Shown piece by piece: positions 2,521-64,000 of a stretch of 64,000 nucleotides of DNA. Under the pieces are notes generated by a model. It ran no database searches, was not told where the DNA came from, and saw nothing but the letters and a program-made list of their open reading frames with translations. Position 1 is the first letter of the stretch. Every line of letters starts with the position of its first letter. The stretch is from Lachnospiraceae bacterium (lineage in GTDB: Bacteria; Bacillota; Clostridia; Lachnospirales; Lachnospiraceae), in contig JAFQCM010000035.1 of the NCBI GenBank assembly GCA_017399445.1, positions 3,593 to 67,592 on the forward strand, in the 5' to 3' direction. Position numbers and translations under genes: made by a program.

Positions 2521-5500
2521 ATGAAACCATTAAAGTTAACAATGAGTGCCTTCGGACCTTATGCAGGAAAAACAGAAATTGATTTTGAGCAGTTAGGTAA
2601 TCAGGGGGTATTTTTAATTACAGGAGATACTGGAGCAGGAAAAACTACTTTGTTTGATGCCATTACCTTTGCTTTGTTTGGAGAAGCCAGTGGAAGTGTC
2701 AGGGCAGCGGACATGTTTCGAAGTAAGTATGCCAAAGAAGATGTACCAACTTTTGTGGAATTAGTTTTTGATTATCATGGAAAAAGATTTAAAGTGAAAA
2801 GAAATCCTGAATATTTACGCCCAAAAGAACGAGGAACCGGTTTTACTATCCAGAAAAGTGAGGCAGAATTAATTTTCCCAGATGACAGACAACCTGTTAC
2901 CAAAGCAGCAGAAGTTACCAAAGCTGTGGAAGAACTTTTAGGGGTGGATTATCATCAGTTCACCCAAATTGCCATGATTGCCCAAGGAGATTTTCAAAAA
3001 CTTCTGATTGCAGGAACGGCAGAGCGAGGTGAAATATTCCGAAAAATTTTTCATACTAAATTATATCAGGTACTTCAGCTGCAGTTAAAAGAAGAAGAAA
3101 AGAAAAGAAAGGCCGCCTATGATGATACCAGAAAAAGTATCAATCAGTATATGAATGATATTTCCTGTAAGCATAATCTTGTAATTGACAAAGAGTTTCA
3201 AGGGTTAAAAAAGCAAAAATTTGAAGGAACGATAGAACGGGGCTTAGAACTTTTGACCCAGTTAAATGAAACGGATGAAAAACAGTATCAGGAGCTGGAT
3301 GAGAAATACAAATCCCTTTTAAAACAAAAGGACCAGTTGGTAACTCTTTTAGAACAGGTGAAGCAGGGGAAAGAACTTCAGGAAAAATTGGATAAGCAAC
3401 AACTTCAGTTGCAGGAGTTACTTCCGAAAGAAGAACAGGCAAAAAAAAATGTTCAGGAAAAGGAAAAGTATCCAAAAATTTGTGAGGAATTAAAAGAAAA
3501 AATTCGTGTGAAACAGGAACGCCTGATAGAACACGAAAAATTAAAAAAGGAAGAAGAAAATTTTGCTGCACAGCAAGAACAATTAAAGTCACAACAAAAA
3601 CTGCAGAAACAAAAGAAAAATACAGAAGAGTTACTGAAACAGAAAGTGGAAGAAGAAAAGAACAGACTTAGTGATTTAAAGGATGTGGGGGAAGAAAAGG
3701 AAAGACTAAATTATCAGCTGGAGACCGAAAAAGGGAAAAAGACGGAATTGGAACGTTTGAAAAAAATGTGGGAAATCAGTGAGAAACTTTTGAATAATAC
3801 CGGTGAAAAATTAAAGTTACTTGTGAAGGAAAAAAAAGAGTCAGAGAAGAAAGTTTCATTACAGGAAAAAGAACTGCAGGAGAAATTAAAAGAAAAAGAA
3901 AGGGTTCAGGACTCAGAAGTAAAATTAATGCAGATGAAACAAAGGGAAAATCAGCTGAAAGTAAAAGAGGAAAGTTTACAAGAAGTAAAGAAAAAGTTAA
4001 GGAATCTTTCAATGAAAATGAAAGAGGTAAAGAAAAAACAGGAAAAATATCTGCAAATTGTGGTAACTCGGGATGCAGAACGTGAAAAGTGTCAACAGTT
4101 GGAGAAATTGTTTTTAGATGCACAGGCGGGGCTTCTTGCAAAGGATTTAAATGAAGATCGTCCATGTCCTGTATGTGGTTCTTTACACCATCCTAAGTTA
4201 GCTGTTATACCGGAGAAAGCACCTGAAAAAGAAGAATTAGAGAAAGCAAGGGAAGAAGTAGCCCAGTGGGAAGCAAAAGCAGAACAAATCAGTGCACAGG
4301 CAGGAGAACAGCGGATACAGGCAGGGCAGGAAGCAGCGGAATTGGTAAAGAAGTTTTCGGAAGAAATGACAGAAGAATTTTCAAAAGAAAAGTTTCTAGC
4401 CGATGAACAGATTTATTTGGAAAAATGGAGTGAAGAAATTAAGGTACAAGAAGAAAAACTTGAAAAAGACAATCAGGAACTTGAAGCTGAAAGAAAGAAG
4501 TTATTAGAAGAAAAGAAAGCATTTGAAGAGGTCACAAGACTGATTGAAGACGTAGAAAGTGAAAAACAACAACTACAGATTATTCTTGCCCAAAAAGAGC
4601 AGGAGCTGGCAACAACAGAAGGAGAAAAATCCGTACAGGAACAGCAATATTTTTCCGCAAGAGAAGAAATAATAAATTTTGTAAAAGGGAAGGATATGGC
4701 GGAGTATGCCCAAAAAATTTCTGAATCGAATCACGTACTTTTTATAGTTGATGAGATTTTACAAGTATTAGAAAACCAACTGTTGGAGTTTAAGAAAAAG
4801 ATACAGGAAAACCATGAAAGAGTATCTCAAAAGAAAGCATTAGAAGAAAATATTCCGAAATTGGAAGAACAACAAAGTCAGCTGGCAATAGAGCTTCAAC
4901 AAATGGCTATTGATTTGGAACGTAAATATACCACAATAGAACAGCAAAATCAGCTTGTTGAAAGTCTGAAGGAAAAGCTTCAGGGTGATAGTAAAGAGGA
5001 AACAAAAGAAAAAATTGAAATTTATAAGTCACAAGTTTTAACTATGGAAAAAGAACGGAGAGAGGCAGAGAATACCTATCAAACATACAAAACTGAAATT
5101 GGAAAATTGAAAGCTTCTATAGAAACTTTAGAAAGTCAGAAAAAGAAAAATGAAAGTATCAAAGAAGAAGAATTAATACAGAAAAAACAACAATTAGAAG
5201 AAGAACAGGAGATACTTTCAAAAGAGTTAAAAGAACATTATAGTGTAATGCAGATAAATCTGGGGATTTATAGAACTGTTTCTGAACATCAAAAGACTTT
5301 AGTGCAGGCAGAACAGGAATATGTATGGTTAAAAGCACTTTCGGACACTGCCAATGGTAATGTGGTTAAAAAGCGAAAGATTGAGCTGGAAACCTATGTA
5401 CAAATGGCATATTTTGACCGTATTTTAAAACGTGCTAATAAAAGACTACTTATGATGAGCGGAAATCAGTACGAATTAAAACGCCAGGAAGATGGAGAGA

Positions 5501-55662: not shown

Positions 55663-57111
55663 ATGTTAGAAAATAAGGAAATTATAGATACCATAGATTT
55701 TAATGGAGAAGCTCCAGCAGATGAAACCAAAAGACAGTACTATTATATGAAAAAGGCTGCAGAATATGTGGAGCAGGAAAGCAAAAAAGCCGGACGAAAG
55801 CTCACATATTTTGTGCAAAATTTTGGATGTCAGATGAATGCAAGGGATGCAGAAAAGCTGGCAGGGATTCTGGAAAAAATTGGATACGAAGAAGCCTTTG
55901 ATGAAATGGCAGATTTTGTAATTTATAATACTTGTACTGTAAGAGAAAATGCCAATTTAAAAGTATATGGAAGATTAGGCTATTTAAGTGGTGTAAAAAA
56001 GAAAAATCCCCATATGAGAATTGGACTTTGCGGCTGTATGATGCAGGAGCCGGAAGTAGTAGAAAAGCTCAAGAAAAGCTACCGTCATGTGGATCTGATT
56101 TTTGGAACCCATAATGTATTTAAACTGGCAGAACTTTTAGTAACCATGTTCCAGTCAGAACGTATGGTAATTGATATATGGAAAGATACTGATAAAATCG
56201 TGGAAGATTTACCAACAGAACGTAAATATCAGTTTAAATCCGGTATTAATATTATGTTTGGATGTAACAATTTCTGTAGTTATTGTATTGTTCCTTATGT
56301 GCGTGGACGAGAAAGAAGTCGCCATCCAAAAGATATTATTCGTGAAATTGAACGGCTGGTGGCAGATGGGGTAGTAGAAGTTATGCTTCTTGGACAGAAT
56401 GTAAACTCTTATGGAAAAACCTTAGAAGAGCCAATGACCTTTGCCCAGCTGTTACAGGAAATCGAAAAAATAGAAGGGTTAAAGAGAATTCGTTTTATGA
56501 CTTCCCATCCAAAGGATTTGTCTGATGAATTAATTAAAGTAATGGCTAATTCTAAAAAGATTTGTAAGCATCTTCACCTTCCATTACAGTCAGGAAGTTC
56601 TAGGGTATTAAAAGAAATGAACCGAGTATATGACAAGGAAAAGTATTTAGAGCTTGCTATGAAAATCAGAGAAGCAATTCCTGATATTTCTTTAACTACA
56701 GATATTATCATTGGATTTCCTGGGGAAACAGAAGAAGATTTTCAAGATACTTTAGATGTGGTAAGAAAGGTGCAGTATGAAAATGCATTTACCTTTATTT
56801 ACTCCAAACGTACTGGAACTCCAGCAGCAGCTATGGAAAATCAGGTGCCGGAAGATGTGACAAAAGACCGTTTTGACCGTTTGTTAAAAGAGGTTCAGGG
56901 AATTGCAAGAAAAAAATCAATGATTTTTGAAGATACTGTTCAGGAAGTGCTGGTAGAAGAGGTAAATGAACAGGATGCAGAACTGGTAACCGGACGTATG
57001 TCAAATAATCTTTTGGTGCACTTTAAAGGTGGCAAGGAATTGATTGGAACTTTGCAGAAGGTGCACTTGAAAGAGTGTAAAGGATTTTATTATATTGGAG
57101 AGCTGGTGTAA
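55663..57111 (+). CDS. miaB: tRNA-2-methylthio-N6-dimethylallyladenosine synthase
   Basis: Motifs FGCQMN..D, radical-SAM CNNFCSYCIVP, and a TRAM domain. The track start 55636 lies about 17 nt from the predicted TSS with no SD. ATG 55663 follows AAAGGTGA; the start remains uncertain. Confidence 0.93.
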   Translation: MLENKEIIDTIDFNGEAPADETKRQYYYMKKAAEYVEQESKKAGRKLTYFVQNFGCQMNARDAEKLAGILEKIGYEEAFDEMADFVIYNTCTVRENANLKVYGRLGYLSGVKKKNPHMRIGLCGCMMQEPEVVEKLKKSYRHVDLIFGTHNVFKLAELLVTMFQSERMVIDIWKDTDKIVEDLPTERKYQFKSGINIMFGCNNFCSYCIVPYVRGRERSRHPKDIIREIERLVADGVVEVMLLGQNVNSYGKTLEEPMTFAQLLQEIEKIEGLKRIRFMTSHPKDLSDELIKVMANSKKICKHLHLPLQSGSSRVLKEMNRVYDKEKYLELAMKIREAIPDISLTTDIIIGFPGETEEDFQDTLDVVRKVQYENAFTFIYSKRTGTPAAAMENQVPEDVTKDRFDRLLKEVQGIARKKSMIFEDTVQEVLVEEVNEQDAELVTGRMSNNLLVHFKGGKELIGTLQKVHLKECKGFYYIGELV

Positions 57112-57285
57112 GGGATAGTCCTTGCCAGCTTCTGGATGCAAATGTGTAAAATAAAATGCACAGACTTCAATTTCGAATGGAACGGGAAAACATGCAAGTA
57201 AATGTAACATAATGCATTAAGAAAGGAAAAAGACACCTGATGGTTGTGTGAAGTGGATTCGAGGACACTGGGAAAGACTAGGTAG

Positions 57286-57321
57286 AGCAGAAGAGTGTGA
57301 AGGCTTTTCTGCTTTTTTTTT
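57286..57321 (+). terminator. Rho-independent terminator about 175 nt downstream of the miaB stop
   Basis: AGCAGAAGAG ... CTTTTCTGCT followed by T9. Confidence 0.8.
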
Positions 57322-57362
57322 CTGTTTTTTGTTATGTCACTAAGAAATACTGCCAAATATAG

Positions 57363-57392
57363 GTACATATTTTAAATTGGTAAAGTACATAT
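57363..57392 (+). repeat. Direct repeat GTACATAT x2 with 22-nt period, ending 5 nt before the -35 of the LytTR gene promoter
   Basis: Exact copies at 57363-57370 and 57385-57392. Confidence 0.6.
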
Positions 57393-57396
57393 GTAT

Positions 57397-57417
57397 ATTG
57401 AAAATAATATACAAATG
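57397..57417 (+). repeat. Copy 1 of the 21-nt element ATTGAAAATAATATACAAATG
   Basis: Identical to 58400-58420. Confidence 0.9.
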
Positions 57418-57426
57418 GGATATAAT
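57398..57426 (+). promoter_or_regulatory. Near-consensus sigma-A promoter of the LytTR gene
   Basis: TTGAAA (57398-57403), 17 nt, TATAAT (57421-57426). Confidence 0.7.
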
Positions 57427-57487
57427 AAGGTAGGAATTCTAGGTATGGAATCGGATAAATAATACCATGTAAACAGGAGGGGCACCA

Positions 57488-57841
57488 ATGAGGAATACAG
57501 CGGTTTTTGAAACGAATGATAAGAAAACAAAGAAAGTTTTCAGTGAAGAAAATATTCAAATTTTAGAAATAAAAGATGTTATTTATGTAGAAAGTGAGGG
57601 GCATTATCTTCATATTTATATGGTAGAAGGTCAAATGATAATACGAAGTAAAGTGAAGGAATTTATAGAAGGAATAGAGGAAGTATTTCTTCACTCACAT
57701 CAGAGCTTTGCTGTTAACATGGCTTATATTAAGAAATTTGGAAACAATGAAATTGAGTTAAAGGATGGAAGAAAGATTCCGGTGAGTAGAAGTAAGTTTA
57801 AGGAATCTAAAGAAAAATTGATAAAATATTTGGATGGTTAA
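57488..57841 (+). CDS. LytTR-domain-only DNA-binding protein (no receiver or sensor domain)
   Basis: 117 aa. Matches the LytTR pattern: I.YVES.GHY..IY........R.K.KEF......FL..HQSF.VN..YI.........L.DG..IPVSRSK. AGGAGGGG 6 nt (CACCAA) before the ATG. Confidence 0.8.
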   Translation: MRNTAVFETNDKKTKKVFSEENIQILEIKDVIYVESEGHYLHIYMVEGQMIIRSKVKEFIEGIEEVFLHSHQSFAVNMAYIKKFGNNEIELKDGRKIPVSRSKFKESKEKLIKYLDG

Positions 57842-57902
57842 AAAGAATATTTTAGAATAAAAGATTCCAAGAAAAGTTATATGAAAACTTCTCTTGAAAT
57901 CT

Positions 57903-58229
57903 TTATTTGTCTTTTGCTAGTCTTTTTGCAATGGAAAGTAAAAGCTCCTGATCTTCAATGGAGATTTTTGACCAATAGCTTATAAGGTGTTTGAATGACC
58001 GCTGCTCTGATATATCATTAGGTTCCATATCCATGAAAAATTCAGAAAGTGTAATACCAAAGGCGTAACAAAGTCTTTCTAATGTTGGAATAGATGGAAT
58101 GGTATTCCGCTTCATCATATTTGTAAGGGTGGAGTATGGGACATCTGCTTCTTGTGCTAAGCGATAATAGGTCCATCCATAAACTTGGCATAGTTTATTT
58201 ATATGTTCAAGTACATTAAATTCATTCAA
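57903..58229 (-). CDS. XRE-family helix-turn-helix transcriptional regulator
   Basis: 108 aa. HTH core GWTYYRLAQEADVPYSTLTNMMKRNTIPSIPTLERLCYAFGITLSEFF. TTG start 7 nt after GGAGG; the nearby ATG is out of frame. Confidence 0.8.
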   Translation of the reverse strand: MNEFNVLEHINKLCQVYGWTYYRLAQEADVPYSTLTNMMKRNTIPSIPTLERLCYAFGITLSEFFMDMEPNDISEQRSFKHLISYWSKISIEDQELLLSIAKRLAKDK

Positions 58230-58399
58230 TTCAGTACCTCCAGATTTGTAGTGAATGGTATATATAAGTATTATACGAATTATTAAAAATAACGTCTTTT
58301 CTATTATAGCATTAAAAAAGAAAGAGAATTAGAATGCATTAGAGTATCATAAAATCGGAAAATTTTAGATGAAGAATGCAGGCGAATGAGAAAGAATGG

Positions 58400-58420
58400 A
58401 TTGAAAATAATATACAAATG
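58400..58420 (+). repeat. Copy 2 of the 21-nt element ATTGAAAATAATATACAAATG
   Basis: Identical to 57397-57417. Lies 328 nt upstream of the giant CHAP gene ATG, in the same orientation. Confidence 0.9.
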
Positions 58421-58747
58421 AGTGACAAATTTGCAAGAAAATTTTGTAAAAAAACCAAAATTTAATGCTAATTTTGACACCACAGATACCAGTTTTGCCA
58501 AAATGGAGAAATCAAAAAAGAGAAGTAGTATAATTTTTGTATAAAATTTTGTGTGCCAGGCATGATGAAAAAAGCATTTATTGGGGTAGAATGCGTGGGG
58601 AATTTCGGATGCTTGGCAGGTAGGGGATGGGAGGTAAGGATAGAGTGGTTTAAAAGGTGACAGATGTTTGGGTGAGAAAAATAGTAGATAGGGAATGTGA
58701 GTGTTGAAATGAAGGGTAAAATATGTAATGAGGAAGAGGTGTTTTTT

Positions 58748-61700
58748 ATGAGAGAAATTAAGAAAAGGTATAAGAAAATAGTGGCACTGGTGCTTTGCCT
58801 GGGAATGATGACAGGAATGTTCGAGGGTGTGCCAGGATTAGGCGAATATAGTGTGGTGGCGGAAGCAGCATATGCAAATCACAACTATGATGGTAGAATT
58901 GCTTGTACATGGTATGCATGGAAAAGAGCACAAGAAAAGTTGGGGATTACATTTCCAAATAACTGGGGCCATGCTGTTTCATGGTATTCGAATGCCTCGA
59001 TAGCAGGATATGAAACAAATTCTACTATTCCAAAAGCAAATTCACTTGCAGTATGGAGTCATGATACAGACTCTATGGGGCATGTGGCGTTTGTGGAGGA
59101 GGTTATAGGAAATTCAGTATATTTATCAGAGGGAGGTTCTTTACAATCTGTAAATGGTATTTACTCAAGAGTTGTAAATAAAAACAATATGAACCGTAGT
59201 TGGTATAGTAATGGTGTGACTACACACGAAACATTACTGGGATATATATATTTGGATGGTGGTAATTCAAATACAACTAATTCTTCAGTTCAAACCCAGT
59301 CCCCATCCATCAACCAAGACTTATCAGAAACAAAATACAACTACATTCAAGAAACAACTTTTGGAAGAAAAGCAGTGTTCAGAAATCCATCCGGAAGACA
59401 AATTGAAGATTTAGGAATGGTTTTATACGATGAAAACGGAAAGGAAATTACCAGAAATCATGAAGGAACACACTCTTCTGGAGTTGGTTCTTATAAACAA
59501 GAGTCATTTATTTATGAAGATGTGACAAAAGATTTAGGAATAGTTTTAGAACCGGAAACAAATTATTTCTATCAGTTTTTTATTAAAGTAGCAGGTTCTG
59601 ATTTAGTATATTCAGATAGATATAGTATTCAAACAGGGGGTAAAAAAACTCCAAATACTCCTTCCATATCCATAGACAAAACCCATGTGGCAGCTGGAGA
59701 TTCTGTTACAGTAACTTGGCAGGCTGATGTGGCGGCAGTCAATGGATATGATATTACTGTAGTATCAGAAGATGGAACTTACAAAAGAACAATTACTGTA
59801 AATGATAAAAATGCATTCAGCGCTTCTGTATCAGTTCCTAATGTAGGAACTTACAGAATTATGGCGGTAGCAAAAGGAAAAAGCAAAAATAGTGGAACTG
59901 CCGTTTCAGAACAGACAATTACTGCACATGACAGTTCTACAGTAACCTTTGTACAAAATACAGAGAACGGTGAAGAAGTTTTAAAAATGGAACGGGTTCC
60001 ATACGGACATAAAGCAACTGCACCATCAGCTCCGTCCAGAGAGGGTTATACTTTCCAGGGATGGGATAAGGATTATAGTAAGGTAACAGAAGATTTAAAA
60101 GTTACTGCAAATTATAAAATTAATACATACACAGTGAAATTTGTGGGGGAAAACGGAACTATTTTAAAAGAAGAAAGGGCTCAATATAAATCTGCAGTAC
60201 AGCCACCAGAAGCACCAGCCTCTACAAAACCGGGATATGTATTTGGTGGATGGAGCAGCAATGATTATGAATGTGTGAAACAAAATGCCACAATTAAAGC
60301 AAGTTATGTGTGGGAAAATAATGAACTTCCAATTATTGTAAGTGATGTTAAATGCGAGTATAAGGATACAGGATATCTTTTGACTTATACCATTGCAAAT
60401 TATCCTACATCCAAAACAACAGGACGTGCCATAGTATCCTTAAAAACATCAACAGGAAAATTAGTTGCAACTACAGAGTCTAGTGCATTTACTATTGATA
60501 AAGATGTAACAAAATCAAACCAGGAAATATTTGTCCCTTATGAAGGAGTAGCATCTACAGCTGAAATTGTAATTGTAGATAAGTTTTCATCAGGCATTCC
60601 AATTTCTAAAAGCCAGTCTTGTGGGGTTTCTAGAGAATGGAGCGCATGGCAGACCACAAAACCGGAAGGAAATTATGTCCTTGAATCAAGAACAGAATAC
60701 AGAAGTCAGGATAAAGTAACAACAACAAGTTCAGCATCTTCTTTGCCAGGCTGGACATTATATAATACCTCAGAGTCATGGAGTGACTGGGGAAATTGGA
60801 GCAGTTGGTCCAGAAACAGCTACAGTAGTTCTGATAGCAGACAGGTAGAAACGCAAAATGTAACAGATTCTAATGGATATAAGATAAACAATTATTACTA
60901 TTACAGATATTGGAATTCTACATATGGTCAATGGTACTATACATATTCTTCTTCTATGGGTGGAACAAAATATACTTTTTCCCAAAGAGAGGGAGATTCA
61001 CCAGCAATGTATTGGTATGCAAACTATGATGGTCATAATGCATACCGCTTGAACAATAATAATGGTGGTTATGGAGTTAATTTTAATAATGAAATCTGGT
61101 ATTTGGAAAGTACACAAAATGTTGATGCTACTTCTCATACAGAATGGCGTTATCGTGACAGAAGCAAAAACTATACTTATTATTATTATAAATGGAATGG
61201 ATGGTCTGACTGGACATCAGAGTCCATTACAGCTTCTGATAATAAACAGGTAGAAACCAGAACCACTTATCGCTATAAATCAGATGTGCAGGGTGAGGAA
61301 GATAATACGGGAAATTTAAGAGAAGTGACAGGAAGTGTTCCAACAGAGTTTGCAGGTAAGCAGGCAACTTTATTAGTATACAAAAACGAGGAAGCAGCGG
61401 ATTACAATAATGAATATGTAGGTCAAAGTGAAATCAATGAAGATGGTACCTATCATTTTTCCTTTATTTCAAGGGAAGAACCATCAGCGGAAACAGGAGA
61501 TTTTACGATTGATTTGGCGATTGAGGGAGCAACAGAATCTATCTATGTTGATACCATTAAAGCACCATTACCTAAATATACTGTTACATTTGTAGACTGG
61601 GATGGAACCGAGATTTCAAAACAAGAGATAATTCAAGGAGAAACAGCGGTCTTGCCGGAAAATCCTGAGCGAGAACATTATAAATTTACCGGATGGGATA

Positions 61701-64000
61701 CCGGAACTACAAATGTTAGGGAAGATTTGATGATAACAGCGCAGTATGAGAAGGAGATTTATACCGTTGTGTGGGTAGACTGGAATCGACAGAATTTTGC
61801 TATAGATACTTATACATATGGAGAAAAATTACTAGAACCATCTTTAACAGAAGTAGAAGGGTATGAATTGGTTTCATGGAAAGATGAAAATGGAGAAACA
61901 CCAGCAGAAGTAACAAAAAATATTGTGCTGACCGCAGAATATAAAATTAAGGAATACACAATTAAATTCTATGATTGGGAAGGAAATTGTATCAATACAC
62001 AGATTGTAGAGTATGGAAAATCAGCATTGGTACCAGAAACACCAGTAAAAACCGGAATGGTATTTGAAGGCTGGAGCAGTGCAGATTATACCTGTGTAAA
62101 AGGTGATTTGGATATCTATCCGAACTTCTCCTATGAAGAGACAGTAGAAAATCCAGAGGTAGATGTGACATCAGGTGCATATGAACATTCATTTACTGTG
62201 AAATTATCAGGAGAAGAAGGAGCAGCTGTTTATTATACTACGGATGGAAGTAAGCCGGATCAATACAGCCAGCAGTATCAAAATGCAATTGAAATCAATA
62301 AAAATACAGTACTTCAGTTTATTGCATGTAAAGAAGGAAAAAATGCCAGTGAAATTCAAAAGGCAGTATATCTAATTTCTGAAACAGAAGATACACAAGG
62401 AATTCTAAAGATTAAAAAGAGTTCATGGGAGTTAGAAGCAGGCAGTACAACAGATTTTGAATATACTTTATATAGAGAAGATGGAGATAACGAAGTAGAA
62501 TTTTTCTCTTTAAATGATGATGTGGCGGAAATTAGCGAAAATGGTAAGATACATGCCAATGGTACAGGAAGCACACAAATCTTTGCAATAACGAAGGACC
62601 TGAAATATGCCGATTTCTGTACAATTAATGTCACTTCAAATGAGATTCCAGTATCAGAGATTAAGCTGGAAAAGAATGTGATATGTATTAGTCCGGAAGG
62701 AAATGAAAAGATAGAAGCGACAGTAGAGCCTGCAAATGCAACAAATCAGGAATTATCATGGTTTTCTGATGACAGCCAGATTGCAGAAGTAAGTAAAGAG
62801 GGAAAAATCATAGGAAAATCTATGGGAATTACTTCTTTAAGAGGCTATTCCTATACAGGAAACTGCTATATTGATTGTACGGTAGTAGTAGCAGAACCTT
62901 CTGTAGAGTTAGCTGACACAGCAATTGTAGTAGAACAGGGAGAACAAGTAACAGAAGAAGCTAATATTATTGGAAGTATTGAGCAAGAATTCCATTGGGA
63001 AAGTGATAATGAAACTGTTGCTACAGTAGATGAAACTGGTCTTATTACAGGAATTGCTCCAGGACAAGCAAAAATAAGTTATGTATCTGAGGACAACCAG
63101 TATAAGGCAAGTGTCATTGTGATTGTTACAGATAAGCAGGAAGAAAAAGTAAGTATAGAAAACAGCGTAGTATCAGAAATTGGGAATGTTACTTACACTG
63201 GAAAAGAGATGAAACCAGAAGTTAAGGTAGAAAGTAATGGTAAAACATTAACAGTATTAGAAGATTATTCTATTGTATTTAGCAATAATGTGAATGCAGG
63301 AACAGCAATGGTTTATATTATTGGAAAAGGAAATTATACAGGAGTTGTTGAGAAAACATTTACTATTTTACCTGCTGATATTGCATCAGTTTCTATAAAG
63401 GAAATTGGCGAACAGAAGTATACAGGAGGCGAAGTAAAGCCTGATGTTGTAGTGAAATCTGGAAGCAAGGTGTTAAGTGAAGGCATTGATTATGTTTTAA
63501 CTTATGAAAATAATACAAATGTTGGCATAGGAAATGTAGTGATTAGTGGACTTGGAAACTATACAGGAACAAAAACTTATTCATTTAAAATAGTTGCAGC
63601 AAGTCAACCATCTCCAGTAGTTACAAAAGCGCCAACACCAATAATTACAAAAACACCAACGGTTACAAAGACACCAACACCAACAATTACGAAGGCACCA
63701 ACCAAAGCACCGGAAAAAGTAACAGCACCAGCTAAGCCAAAGATTAAATCTGTAAAAAATGTTAAGGGTAAAAAGATGACAATAAAACTTAGTAAGAAAG
63801 TAAGTGGTGCTGCTGGATACCAGGTTACTTATGCTACAAACAGCAAGTTTACAGTAGGTAAGAAAAATGTAGATATGAAATCAACTTCTAAGACGATTAG
63901 TAAGCTGAAAAAGGGAAAAACATATTATGTAAAGGTTCGGGCATATAAGAAAGATTCTAAGGGTAAGAAGATATATGGAAAGTATAGTTCTGTGAAAAAA
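58748..64000 (+). CDS. Giant secreted multidomain protein with N-terminal CHAP peptidoglycan hydrolase domain; 5' 1751 codons, continues past the window end
   Basis: I translated 58748-64000 (5253 nt) and met no stop. GAGGTG lies 6 nt before the ATG. Signal peptide MREIKKRYKKIVALVLCLGMMTG...AEA-AYA. Not in the ORF track because no stop is in the window. Domain order is given in the sub-features below. Confidence 0.9.
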   Translation, partial: MREIKKRYKKIVALVLCLGMMTGMFEGVPGLGEYSVVAEAAYANHNYDGRIACTWYAWKRAQEKLGITFPNNWGHAVSWYSNASIAGYETNSTIPKANSLAVWSHDTDSMGHVAFVEEVIGNSVYLSEGGSLQSVNGIYSRVVNKNNMNRSWYSNGVTTHETLLGYIYLDGGNSNTTNSSVQTQSPSINQDLSETKYNYIQETTFGRKAVFRNPSGRQIEDLGMVLYDENGKEITRNHEGTHSSGVGSYKQESFIYEDVTKDLGIVLEPETNYFYQFFIKVAGSDLVYSDRYSIQTGGKKTPNTPSISIDKTHVAAGDSVTVTWQADVAAVNGYDITVVSEDGTYKRTITVNDKNAFSASVSVPNVGTYRIMAVAKGKSKNSGTAVSEQTITAHDSSTVTFVQNTENGEEVLKMERVPYGHKATAPSAPSREGYTFQGWDKDYSKVTEDLKVTANYKINTYTVKFVGENGTILKEERAQYKSAVQPPEAPASTKPGYVFGGWSSNDYECVKQNATIKASYVWENNELPIIVSDVKCEYKDTGYLLTYTIANYPTSKTTGRAIVSLKTSTGKLVATTESSAFTIDKDVTKSNQEIFVPYEGVASTAEIVIVDKFSSGIPISKSQSCGVSREWSAWQTTKPEGNYVLESRTEYRSQDKVTTTSSASSLPGWTLYNTSESWSDWGNWSSWSRNSYSSSDSRQVETQNVTDSNGYKINNYYYYRYWNSTYGQWYYTYSSSMGGTKYTFSQREGDSPAMYWYANYDGHNAYRLNNNNGGYGVNFNNEIWYLESTQNVDATSHTEWRYRDRSKNYTYYYYKWNGWSDWTSESITASDNKQVETRTTYRYKSDVQGEEDNTGNLREVTGSVPTEFAGKQATLLVYKNEEAADYNNEYVGQSEINEDGTYHFSFISREEPSAETGDFTIDLAIEGATESIYVDTIKAPLPKYTVTFVDWDGTEISKQEIIQGETAVLPENPEREHYKFTGWDTGTTNVREDLMITAQYEKEIYTVVWVDWNRQNFAIDTYTYGEKLLEPSLTEVEGYELVSWKDENGETPAEVTKNIVLTAEYKIKEYTIKFYDWEGNCINTQIVEYGKSALVPETPVKTGMVFEGWSSADYTCVKGDLDIYPNFSYEETVENPEVDVTSGAYEHSFTVKLSGEEGAAVYYTTDGSKPDQYSQQYQNAIEINKNTVLQFIACKEGKNASEIQKAVYLISETEDTQGILKIKKSSWELEAGSTTDFEYTLYREDGDNEVEFFSLNDDVAEISENGKIHANGTGSTQIFAITKDLKYADFCTINVTSNEIPVSEIKLEKNVICISPEGNEKIEATVEPANATNQELSWFSDDSQIAEVSKEGKIIGKSMGITSLRGYSYTGNCYIDCTVVVAEPSVELADTAIVVEQGEQVTEEANIIGSIEQEFHWESDNETVATVDETGLITGIAPGQAKISYVSEDNQYKASVIVIVTDKQEEKVSIENSVVSEIGNVTYTGKEMKPEVKVESNGKTLTVLEDYSIVFSNNVNAGTAMVYIIGKGNYTGVVEKTFTILPADIASVSIKEIGEQKYTGGEVKPDVVVKSGSKVLSEGIDYVLTYENNTNVGIGNVVISGLGNYTGTKTYSFKIVAASQPSPVVTKAPTPIITKTPTVTKTPTPTITKAPTKAPEKVTAPAKPKIKSVKNVKGKKMTIKLSKKVSGAAGYQVTYATNSKFTVGKKNVDMKSTSKTISKLKKGKTYYVKVRAYKKDSKGKKIYGKYSSVKK
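58880..59273 (+). other. CHAP (cysteine, histidine-dependent amidohydrolase/peptidase) domain
   Basis: GRIACTWYAWKRA with Cys codon at 58904-58906. NNWGHA.SWY. SMGHVAFVEEV with His codon at 59081-59083. YLSEGG. Confidence 0.85.
59936..60313 (+). repeat. Two Listeria-Bacteroides (InlB B-repeat/Flg_new-type) repeats
   Basis: TVTFV...G..L....V.YG..A..P..P.REGYTFQGWD.......DL.V.A.Y, then YTVKFV.ENG..L........S.V.PP..P...GYVFGGW. Confidence 0.75.
60629..61282 (+). other. Trp/Tyr-rich module with WSxW ladders (unassigned family)
   Basis: WSDWGNWSSWS (60779-60811) and WNGWSDWTS (61193-61219). Each is followed by a D-S/N-R/K-QVET tail. Between them lies a Y/W/N-rich core NNYYYYRYWNSTYGQWYYTYSSS... 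Confidence 0.6.
61574..62131 (+). repeat. Three more Listeria-Bacteroides-type repeats
   Basis: YTVTFVDWDGTEI...YKFTGWD; YTVVWVDWN...GYELVSW; YTIKFYDWEGN...GMVFEGWS. Confidence 0.75.
62399..63130 (+). repeat. Three Big_2-like Ig domains, preceded at 62153-62371 by a chitobiase C-terminal-like module (VYYTTDGSKP)
   Basis: Patterns ...V.FFSLNDDVAEISENGKIHANGTGST.I.A; ATNQELSWFSDDSQIAEVSKEGKIIGKS.G; FHWESDNETVATVDETGLITGIAPGQAKISY. Confidence 0.7.
63161..63595 (+). repeat. Two tandem ~70-aa modules (YTG.E.KP.V.V...G..L....DY...Y.NN.N.G.A.V.I.G.GNYTG....F.I)
   Basis: aa about 1472-1541 and 1547-1616 of the giant ORF share this pattern. Confidence 0.6.
63602..63742 (+). repeat. Pro/Thr/Lys-rich linker with degenerate T-K-x-P-T repeats, followed by an Fn3-like domain to the window end
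   Basis: PSPVVTKAPTPIITKTPTVTKTPTPTITKAPTKAPEKVTAPAKPK. Confidence 0.8.

Follow-up and report, generated by a model that had tools for sequence, protein, structure and literature searches.

What does one short sequence, repeated without a single change, do in front of two neighbouring genes? The question is raised by a 64,000-nucleotide stretch of DNA from a gut Lachnospiraceae bacterium (the window; contig C19 of a 2.97-Mb assembly, 35% G+C), in which the 21-mer ATTGAAAATAATATACAAATG occurs exactly twice, at 57397-57417 (copy 1) and 58400-58420 (copy 2), both on the + strand. Copy 1 lies upstream of the gene for a LytTR protein without a receiver domain (117 aa; 57488-57841, + strand) and copy 2 upstream of the gene for a giant secreted CHAP hydrolase (58748-64000, + strand, continuing past the end of the window); between the copies, convergent with the LytTR gene, an XRE/Cro-CI-type helix-turn-helix (HTH) protein is encoded (108 aa; 57903-58229, - strand). 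In the initial annotation the 21-mer was read as a promoter segment common to the LytTR and hydrolase genes. This interpretation can be upheld in part: there is indeed one small module, and copy 1 does belong to a near-consensus promoter sequence, while the promoter assigned to copy 2 and the role of an upstream pair of GTACATAT as a LytTR site find no support. What the two copies have in common is a box of about 16 bp, ATAATATACAAATGRG, and the 21-mer is not a duplicated promoter. To judge from the alignments, it is most likely through direct repeats at 58466-58501, about 50 bases downstream of copy 2, and not through the 21-mer, that the hydrolase gene is activated.

A circuit can be proposed in which these elements all find a place, and for which, as a whole, we see the balance as even. 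The receiver-less LytTR protein would bind the repeats with their 21-bp period and activate the promoter of the giant CHAP hydrolase gene, which is devoid of a -35 element, and it would do likewise at a CHAP paralog on contig C96. The XRE protein would bind the boxes: its own promoter would be controlled via one of them (box C), LytTR would be repressed via another in the spacer of the LytTR promoter (box A'), and the XRE protein would act on the target cassette via a third (box A). It would thereby gate LytTR and the hydrolases jointly. Both the pairing of each protein with its element and the sign of the regulation are what we infer.

Repeats and cassette in front of the hydrolase gene

The elements themselves, their conservation, their spacing and their rarity in the genome can be read directly from the aligned loci, which represent about seven lineages and stem from contigs with LytTR and XRE orthologs. 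Upstream of the giant gene lie two direct-repeat units, TGCTAATTTTGACAC (58466-58480, + strand) and TACCAGTTTTGCCAA (58487-58501, + strand), the second of which starts 21 nt after the start of the first. Together they constitute element B, and they include the stretches TTTTGACA and TTTTGCCA. They are followed by a TATAAT (58529-58534, + strand) to which no -35 consensus corresponds. Ten instances of element B, from seven lineages, have an invariant spacing, with exactly 27 nt from unit 2 to the TATAAT and 60 nt from TG.CA to TATAAT in all of them; the hexamer always comes 54 nt after the TG.CA of unit 1. Within an instance, the two units agree at 10-12 of their 15 positions. In the 2.97-Mb genome the pattern occurs twice, before the giant gene and before the CHAP paralog on C96, and no exact match was found in 60 related genomes.

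In five lineages (the window, L019/L020, L021-25, L044-46 and L026/L062) element B adjoins an ortholog of the LytTR-only gene, and in L084 it adjoins a truncated LytTR gene. In L021-25 it is also present upstream of the LytTR gene itself. The cargo behind it varies, from giants headed by a CHAP or M23 domain to HAD/acyltransferase operons and a BspA-LRR protein. Receiver-less LytTR regulators are known to bind two 9-bp repeats 12 bp apart that precede a weak -35 by 4-11 bp, in most cases by 10 bp, for example ACCAGTTAT (PMC6193735). In the same 9-bp register the window reads GCTAATTTT, 12 bp, ACCAGTTTT (58488-58496), 10 bp, AGAAAT-16-TATAAT. It is thus the adjacent LytTR-only protein that would activate the element B promoter. 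Transcription of the hydrolase gene is predicted to start near 58541, with a leader of about 207 nt. This predicted leader (58541-58747) is rich in G and poor in C, and the C96 paralog shares with it no more than the ribosome-binding region, roughly the final 35 nt. A mutation of the 21-mer alone would probably leave hydrolase expression in place; a mutation of the repeats at 58466-58501 should abolish it.

Copy 2 appears to have a different function from the one it was first given. The hexamer after it does read GACAAA or ACAAAT, as had been noted, but a promoter scan gives no + strand promoter there. Moreover, in an alignment of five independent target cassettes the left half of copy 2 (58400-58407), with its TTGAAA, stays at the background conservation of about 0.4, positions 58408-58417 reach a peak of 0.80, and a conserved TATAAT is found 108 nt further downstream. 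The conservation peaks of these cassettes fall on box C, box A, the repeats and the -10. The conserved core of copy 2 is box A, ATAATATACAAATGAG (58407-58422, + strand). In seven cassettes, that of the C96 paralog among them, the first TG.CA of the repeats follows it downstream at a distance of 64-67 nt. The conserved core and its fixed distance to the repeats make copy 2 block A of a cassette of about 240 bp. Counted from the XRE gene, the order of this cassette is XRE promoter, box C, box A, two 15-nt repeats, 27 nt and a TATAAT without -35. The XRE promoter is recognizable by its extended -10, block D (58303-58311, - strand, reading TGCTATAAT), which every XRE lineage retains. In the direction of the XRE gene, box C, TTAGAATGCATTAGAG (58329-58344, + strand, conservation 0.91), precedes this extended -10 by 17 nt; in the other direction, the hydrolase promoter comes about 200 nt after it.

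Two other candidates overlapping copy 2 were rejected: a 29-codon open reading frame (ORF) spanning it is broken in L019b by a 1-nt insertion, and a - strand promoter, TTGCAA-16-TATATT, is kept only in the window and in L019, not in L062 or L071.

The cassette blocks precede the target genes of the module, including the second CHAP gene on C96. The idea of a small self-contained regulon has therefore to be widened: the LytTR, XRE and hydrolase genes do form one module, but a gene on another contig is included as well. The paralogous cassette on C96 (L018, 2950-5478) consists of box C, box A, the repeats and a TATAAT, and it precedes a 44-codon signal-peptide stub ORF and a gene for a 652-aa CHAP/Bsp-like/C-type lectin/fn3 protein. 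Directly upstream of it, at the position expected for the XRE gene, lies a remnant of an IS4-like transposase.

The 21-mer and the promoter of the LytTR gene

The recurrence of the 21-mer is not a product of base composition. None of 100 dinucleotide-preserving shuffles gave two matches to ATTGAAAATAATATACAAATG with up to 3 mismatches, and a repeat search recovered the same pair. A dispersed generic repeat can be ruled out as well, because a search of the whole assembly adds just two near-copies, both within coding sequence: one with 1 mismatch in a histidine-kinase gene on C21, the other on C79, within a pilin-like gene in antisense orientation and with 2 mismatches. The near-copy on C21 (61970-61990, - strand; L003, 1501-1521) lies in a gene for an AgrC-like histidine kinase of 442 aa, where it reads FIENNIQI, and this gene adjoins one for a LytTR response regulator. 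With a shift of one base it agrees with copy 1 over 21 nt and with copy 2 over 20 nt (iid expectation about 3e-3), and in promoter register it would give TTGAAA-17-TGTAAT. It could be due to chance, an internal promoter or a source of recombination.

The boxes are also exceptional as a group. With a 16-mer matrix built from the other lineages only, boxes C, A and A' of the window and box C of C96 rank 7, 8, 24 and 5, respectively, of about 5.9 million positions in the genome. The pair C-A is the sole pair of same-strand matches of at least 12 bits lying within 20-120 nt of each other, and the other top matches fall mostly within long ORFs. A merged 14-mer box matrix (10.9 bits) was unspecific and was abandoned for the 16-mer one. 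One strong match, at C134:46785-46815, lies within a palindrome, CTTAGTAT-N8-ATACTAAG, in an apparently intergenic position, and may be the operator of another HTH protein.

As for copy 1, its assignment to a probable promoter is supported. It contributes TTGAAA (57398-57403) and most of the spacer before TATAAT (57421-57426), and the resulting predicted sigma-A-type promoter of the LytTR gene, TTGAAA-17-TATAAT (57398-57426, + strand), is the top promoter match of the region, with 11 of 12 hexamer positions. This architecture is kept at five orthologous loci; in pairwise comparison the -35 has a mean identity of 0.93, the -10 one of 1.00 and the 40-nt flanks one of 0.34. Conservation extends to the spacer, with an identity of 0.665 in the five lineages against 0.37 +/- 0.03 in composition-matched shuffles. 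It is in this spacer that box A', ATAATATACAAATGGG (57404-57419, + strand), is located as a candidate operator; the constraint on the spacer points to an operator within the core promoter.

When 952 positions are compared with a near-identical strain, L048/L049, known from two independent samples, 8 are different, and three of these differences fall within the 29-nt LytTR promoter (binomial P for the clustering about 1e-3): the -35 is altered by 57402 A>G, the box core by 57411 A>T (TACA to TTCA) and the -10 by 57426 T>C. Comparison with L019 as outgroup indicates that the window has the ancestral state at these sites. In its exact form the 21-mer is thus not fixed, and selection appears to act on the LytTR promoter.

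Further upstream, a pair of direct repeats, GTACATAT-N14-GTACATAT (57363-57392, + strand), ends 5 nt before the LytTR -35. It is present as described in the initial annotation, where it was taken for LytTR-type repeats, and a genome-wide search found it to be unique; exact 8-mer repeats with a period of 20-23 have a background rate of about 8e-4 per AT-rich position. The pair is absent, nevertheless, from the orthologous LytTR promoters of L019, L026, L044 and L069, and it is dissimilar to the conserved units of element B. Two symmetric elements overlap with it, the perfect palindrome TACATATGTA (57386-57395) and, centred on the -35, an inverted repeat of 8 bp; these are species-specific, and possibly the pair is itself a species-specific site.

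Related loci and the protein behind the boxes

The LytTR-only protein has very few relatives. At L019/L020 it is 80% identical and stands in the same miaB context, with a HAD/acyltransferase operon inserted between the LytTR and XRE genes. The inserted segment in this sister strain (L019, 1197-3627) has a repeat-type promoter of its own, and a 13-codon remnant of the LytTR 3' end has been left at 3589-3627; an operon that brings along such a promoter indicates that the cassette moves with different cargo. In L026-28 and L062 (63% identity) the order is LytTR, XRE, acyltransferase operon. In L021-25 (66%) the LytTR gene directly precedes those of giant M23- or CHAP-headed proteins, and in L044-46 (69%) the target is a BspA-LRR protein; in both of these groups an XRE gene is not in view. 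L021 and L023 have one LytTR protein (122 aa, P0003) and near-identical upstream regions of 568 nt, followed by a Peptidase_M23-headed giant in the former and a CHAP-headed giant in the latter. L069, L071 and L084 contain the XRE gene with partial context. In L084 (reverse strand, 1-384) the LytTR gene is truncated at its 5' end, and a hairpin-rich segment stands in place of its promoter; the XRE gene and the full cassette are intact. Finally, in L063-68 an XRE ortholog is situated between unrelated genes, without LytTR or giant gene. The module is missing from the species representatives of 60 relatives, where a DNA similarity search gave chance-level fragments only, and an alignment search of metagenome and genome collections found LytTR relatives of at most 41% identity (Lachnospiraceae and other Clostridia), too distant for motif comparison. 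XRE homologs in 150 genomes of the family are 37-48% identical, and box C was not seen with them.

These loci also bear on the question of which protein reads the boxes. The arrangement of box C, 17 nt and TGnTAnAAT is kept before every XRE ortholog, including those of L063-68, and since there it persists without LytTR or giant gene, box C is most simply explained as an XRE autoregulatory site. Boxes of the A type that resemble box C occur in three lineages, in L084 (TTAGTATACAAAAGAA), in L071 (TTAATATACATTTGAA) and in the LytTR promoter of L026 (TTAGTATACAAATGAA), and they score 10-13 bits with a matrix made from C boxes only (null P 0.0015-0.01). Furthermore, the ATACA core has been lost from the LytTR promoters of L044 and L021, lineages without an XRE gene in view. 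This loss fits the XRE protein as binder, on the basis of few lineages and short contigs. The suggestion that a shared site couples the LytTR and hydrolase genes is plausible, with XRE likelier than LytTR to occupy it.

Several observations weigh against the proposed circuit. The boxes of the window's own 21-mer score just about 3 bits with the C-only matrix, so that the link between 21-mer and XRE rests here on positional homology with C-like boxes elsewhere and not on sequence similarity. The box is asymmetric, and dyads are the more usual targets of HTH dimers. On C96 and in L021d, boxes C and A are retained although no XRE gene adjoins them; the predicted hydrolase start is about 125 nt downstream of box A, a position unusual for a simple repressor; and the closest strain has two substitutions inside copy 1. 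On the side of the activator, a full-length LytTR response regulator is encoded near the module in L021, with a DNA-binding domain that is 48% identical, and it could also use the repeats. Most of the contigs compared are, moreover, short and metagenomic, many of them of 1-2 kb.

A more general scheme could also be imagined, which we put forward tentatively, as somewhat less likely than not. The module would be a portable switch, composed of a receiver-less LytTR activator, an XRE antagonist in place of a membrane inhibitor and the cassette of about 240 bp, and it would be plugged in before interchangeable surface cargo. The 21-mer would then be an XRE operator by which the supply of activator is coupled to access to the target. 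Were this the case, the cargo of the switch in gut Lachnospiraceae would comprise giant CHAP- and M23-headed hydrolases, acyltransferase operons and LRR adhesins.

An alternative that we regard as unlikely is that LytTR itself binds the boxes, repressing its own gene at the spacer and using the boxes at its targets as distal auxiliary sites, with XRE controlling its own gene or something else. This would account for the box in the spacer of the LytTR promoter in all five lineages with that architecture, for the persistence of boxes C and A where no XRE gene is adjacent, for the near-constant distance from box A to the repeats, as if one protein spanned both, and for the asymmetry of the box, which LytTR half-sites share. 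On the other hand, box C goes with XRE at loci devoid of a LytTR-only gene (L063-68), the sequence of the box is dissimilar to the repeat units, and the ATACA core is missing precisely from LytTR promoters where XRE is not seen. There are also targets with repeats and without boxes, namely L044, the acyltransferase operon of L019 and the region upstream of LytTR in L021, and these imply that the boxes are dispensable for a repeat-driven promoter.

It is quite improbable, in our view, that the identity of the two copies has no present function and merely marks a duplication or a patch of gene conversion, or, in a variant of this explanation, recombination sites flanking a mobile LytTR-XRE pair. 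Full identity over 21 nt is strain-specific, the copies of L019 differing by one indel and one substitution and those of L048/49 at two positions; the copies flank exactly the two regulator genes, at a distance of 1003 bp; and the third copy, of 20-21 nt, lies within the kinase gene. A relic, however, would not be expected to retain its core box at both positions where the surroundings have diverged to about 35-50% identity, nor to stand always in the promoter in the case of copy 1 and always about 65 nt from the repeats in the case of copy 2. For recombination sites, there is no recombinase, and an empty-site variant was not found.

The least probable reading is the initial one, a shared promoter segment with LytTR acting on its own gene through GTACATAT-N14-GTACATAT and activating a weak promoter at copy 2: the geometry of the pair is within the published LytTR range (9-bp repeats 13 bp apart, 4-5 nt from the -35) and its uniqueness speaks for it, but four other lineages with an equal promoter do without the pair, its sequence is unlike the conserved units beside the targets, and at copy 2 an unconserved -35 half with no usable -10 after it competes with a conserved, better-placed promoter downstream.

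Gene content and known systems

The gene assignments around both copies of the 21-mer are upheld by Pfam. The module is preceded by a MiaB-like gene ending at 57111, and its left border is formed by the intrinsic terminator of the miaB unit (57284-57321, + strand), with a 13-pair stem and a T run. In this segment (57112-57321), the approximately 175 nt from the miaB stop to the terminator are conserved in L019 and L048/49 and have no Rfam match; an Rfam scan of 57050-58800 as a whole gave nothing credible. In the 117-aa protein, the LytTR domain (PF04397, residues 23-111, E 1.2e-18) scores 67.6 bits, above the gathering cut-off of 22.6. It is the sole Pfam match, Response_reg being absent, and the protein is too short to accommodate a receiver domain. 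Among the 15 LytTR proteins encoded in the genome, identity to this one is 32% at most, and a PDB sequence search gave no relative of it. Between the convergent LytTR and XRE genes lies a hairpin (57860-57904) with 19-nt arms that are 89% complementary, likely a bidirectional terminator. The 108-aa protein starts at a TTG 7 nt after GGAGG, belongs to the XRE/Cro-CI HTH proteins by its matches to HTH_26 (E 9.8e-9), HTH_3 (E 6.5e-6) and Phage_CI_repr, and is unique in the genome; its closest solved structure is 3b7h. The hydrolase shows CHAP, Big_2 and Flg_new domains, with an Ig-like/Flg_new stalk. No kinase gene is found from miaB to the giant gene, and the proposal that the intergenic regions are decayed kinase genes was rejected, as only the match of 20-21 nt and a 13-aa tblastn match (E 0.1) were obtained.

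For this locus a putative control region has been delimited. It comprises LytTR and XRE as the two candidate regulators, the three boxes A, A' and C, a single pair of repeats for the activator, and transcription starts predicted at three places, near 57433 (+ strand), 58541 (+ strand) and 58296 (- strand). We know of no experimental description of the giant stalked cell-wall hydrolases of gut Clostridia, nor of any account of when they are produced. A literature search gave no report of cell-wall hydrolases under the control of a LytTR/XRE pair.

The closest parallels are LytTR regulatory systems (LRS) such as HdrRM, BrsRM and their relatives (Zou et al. 2018, PMC6193735). In both cases there is a soluble LytTR protein without receiver, and the target promoters have two direct repeats with a 21-bp period about 10 bp before a weak -35, the repeats being of the ACCnnTT type (PMC6193735). 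As in LRS, repeats of the target type are found before the regulator gene as well, but only in L021-25. For positive autoregulation in LRS, two 9-bp direct repeats 11-13 bp apart lie 4-11 bp before the -35 of the regulator's own operon; upstream of the window's LytTR gene this geometry is matched by the unconserved GTACATAT pair alone, and the regulator promoter is, in contrast to LRS, of a near-consensus constitutive type with a conserved box in its spacer and no target-type repeats upstream. A co-transcribed membrane inhibitor (DUF3021/DUF2154) is not present. The neighbour is instead a convergent gene for a cytoplasmic XRE HTH protein with conserved boxes, and in L021-25 and L044 the gene after LytTR is the target itself. 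The cargo also differs, consisting here of giant cell-wall hydrolases and surface proteins and in LRS of bacteriocin or competence genes. The module would thus work like an LRS minus one defining feature, the co-transcribed membrane inhibitor, and would be a new variant of LytTR system. It suggests that a DNA-binding partner can take the place of a membrane inhibitor in gating receiver-less LytTR regulators, and the published view of LRS would thereby be broadened.

AgrA, ComE and PlnC have a DNA-binding domain of the same family and use 9-bp repeats, separated by 12 bp, that precede promoters dependent on an activator. Unlike these, the protein of the window has no receiver domain, and no adjacent histidine kinase or peptide-pheromone gene is in view. 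Divergent repressors of the XRE/Cro-CI type, in turn, are reminiscent of the other half of the module: a small HTH gene is divergent from its probable target genes, its own extended -10 has a conserved box beside it, and related boxes are repeated in the regions under control. In contrast to the tight tripartite operators of such repressors, the boxes here are asymmetric and 64-82 nt apart, and the element would work alongside the site of an activator.

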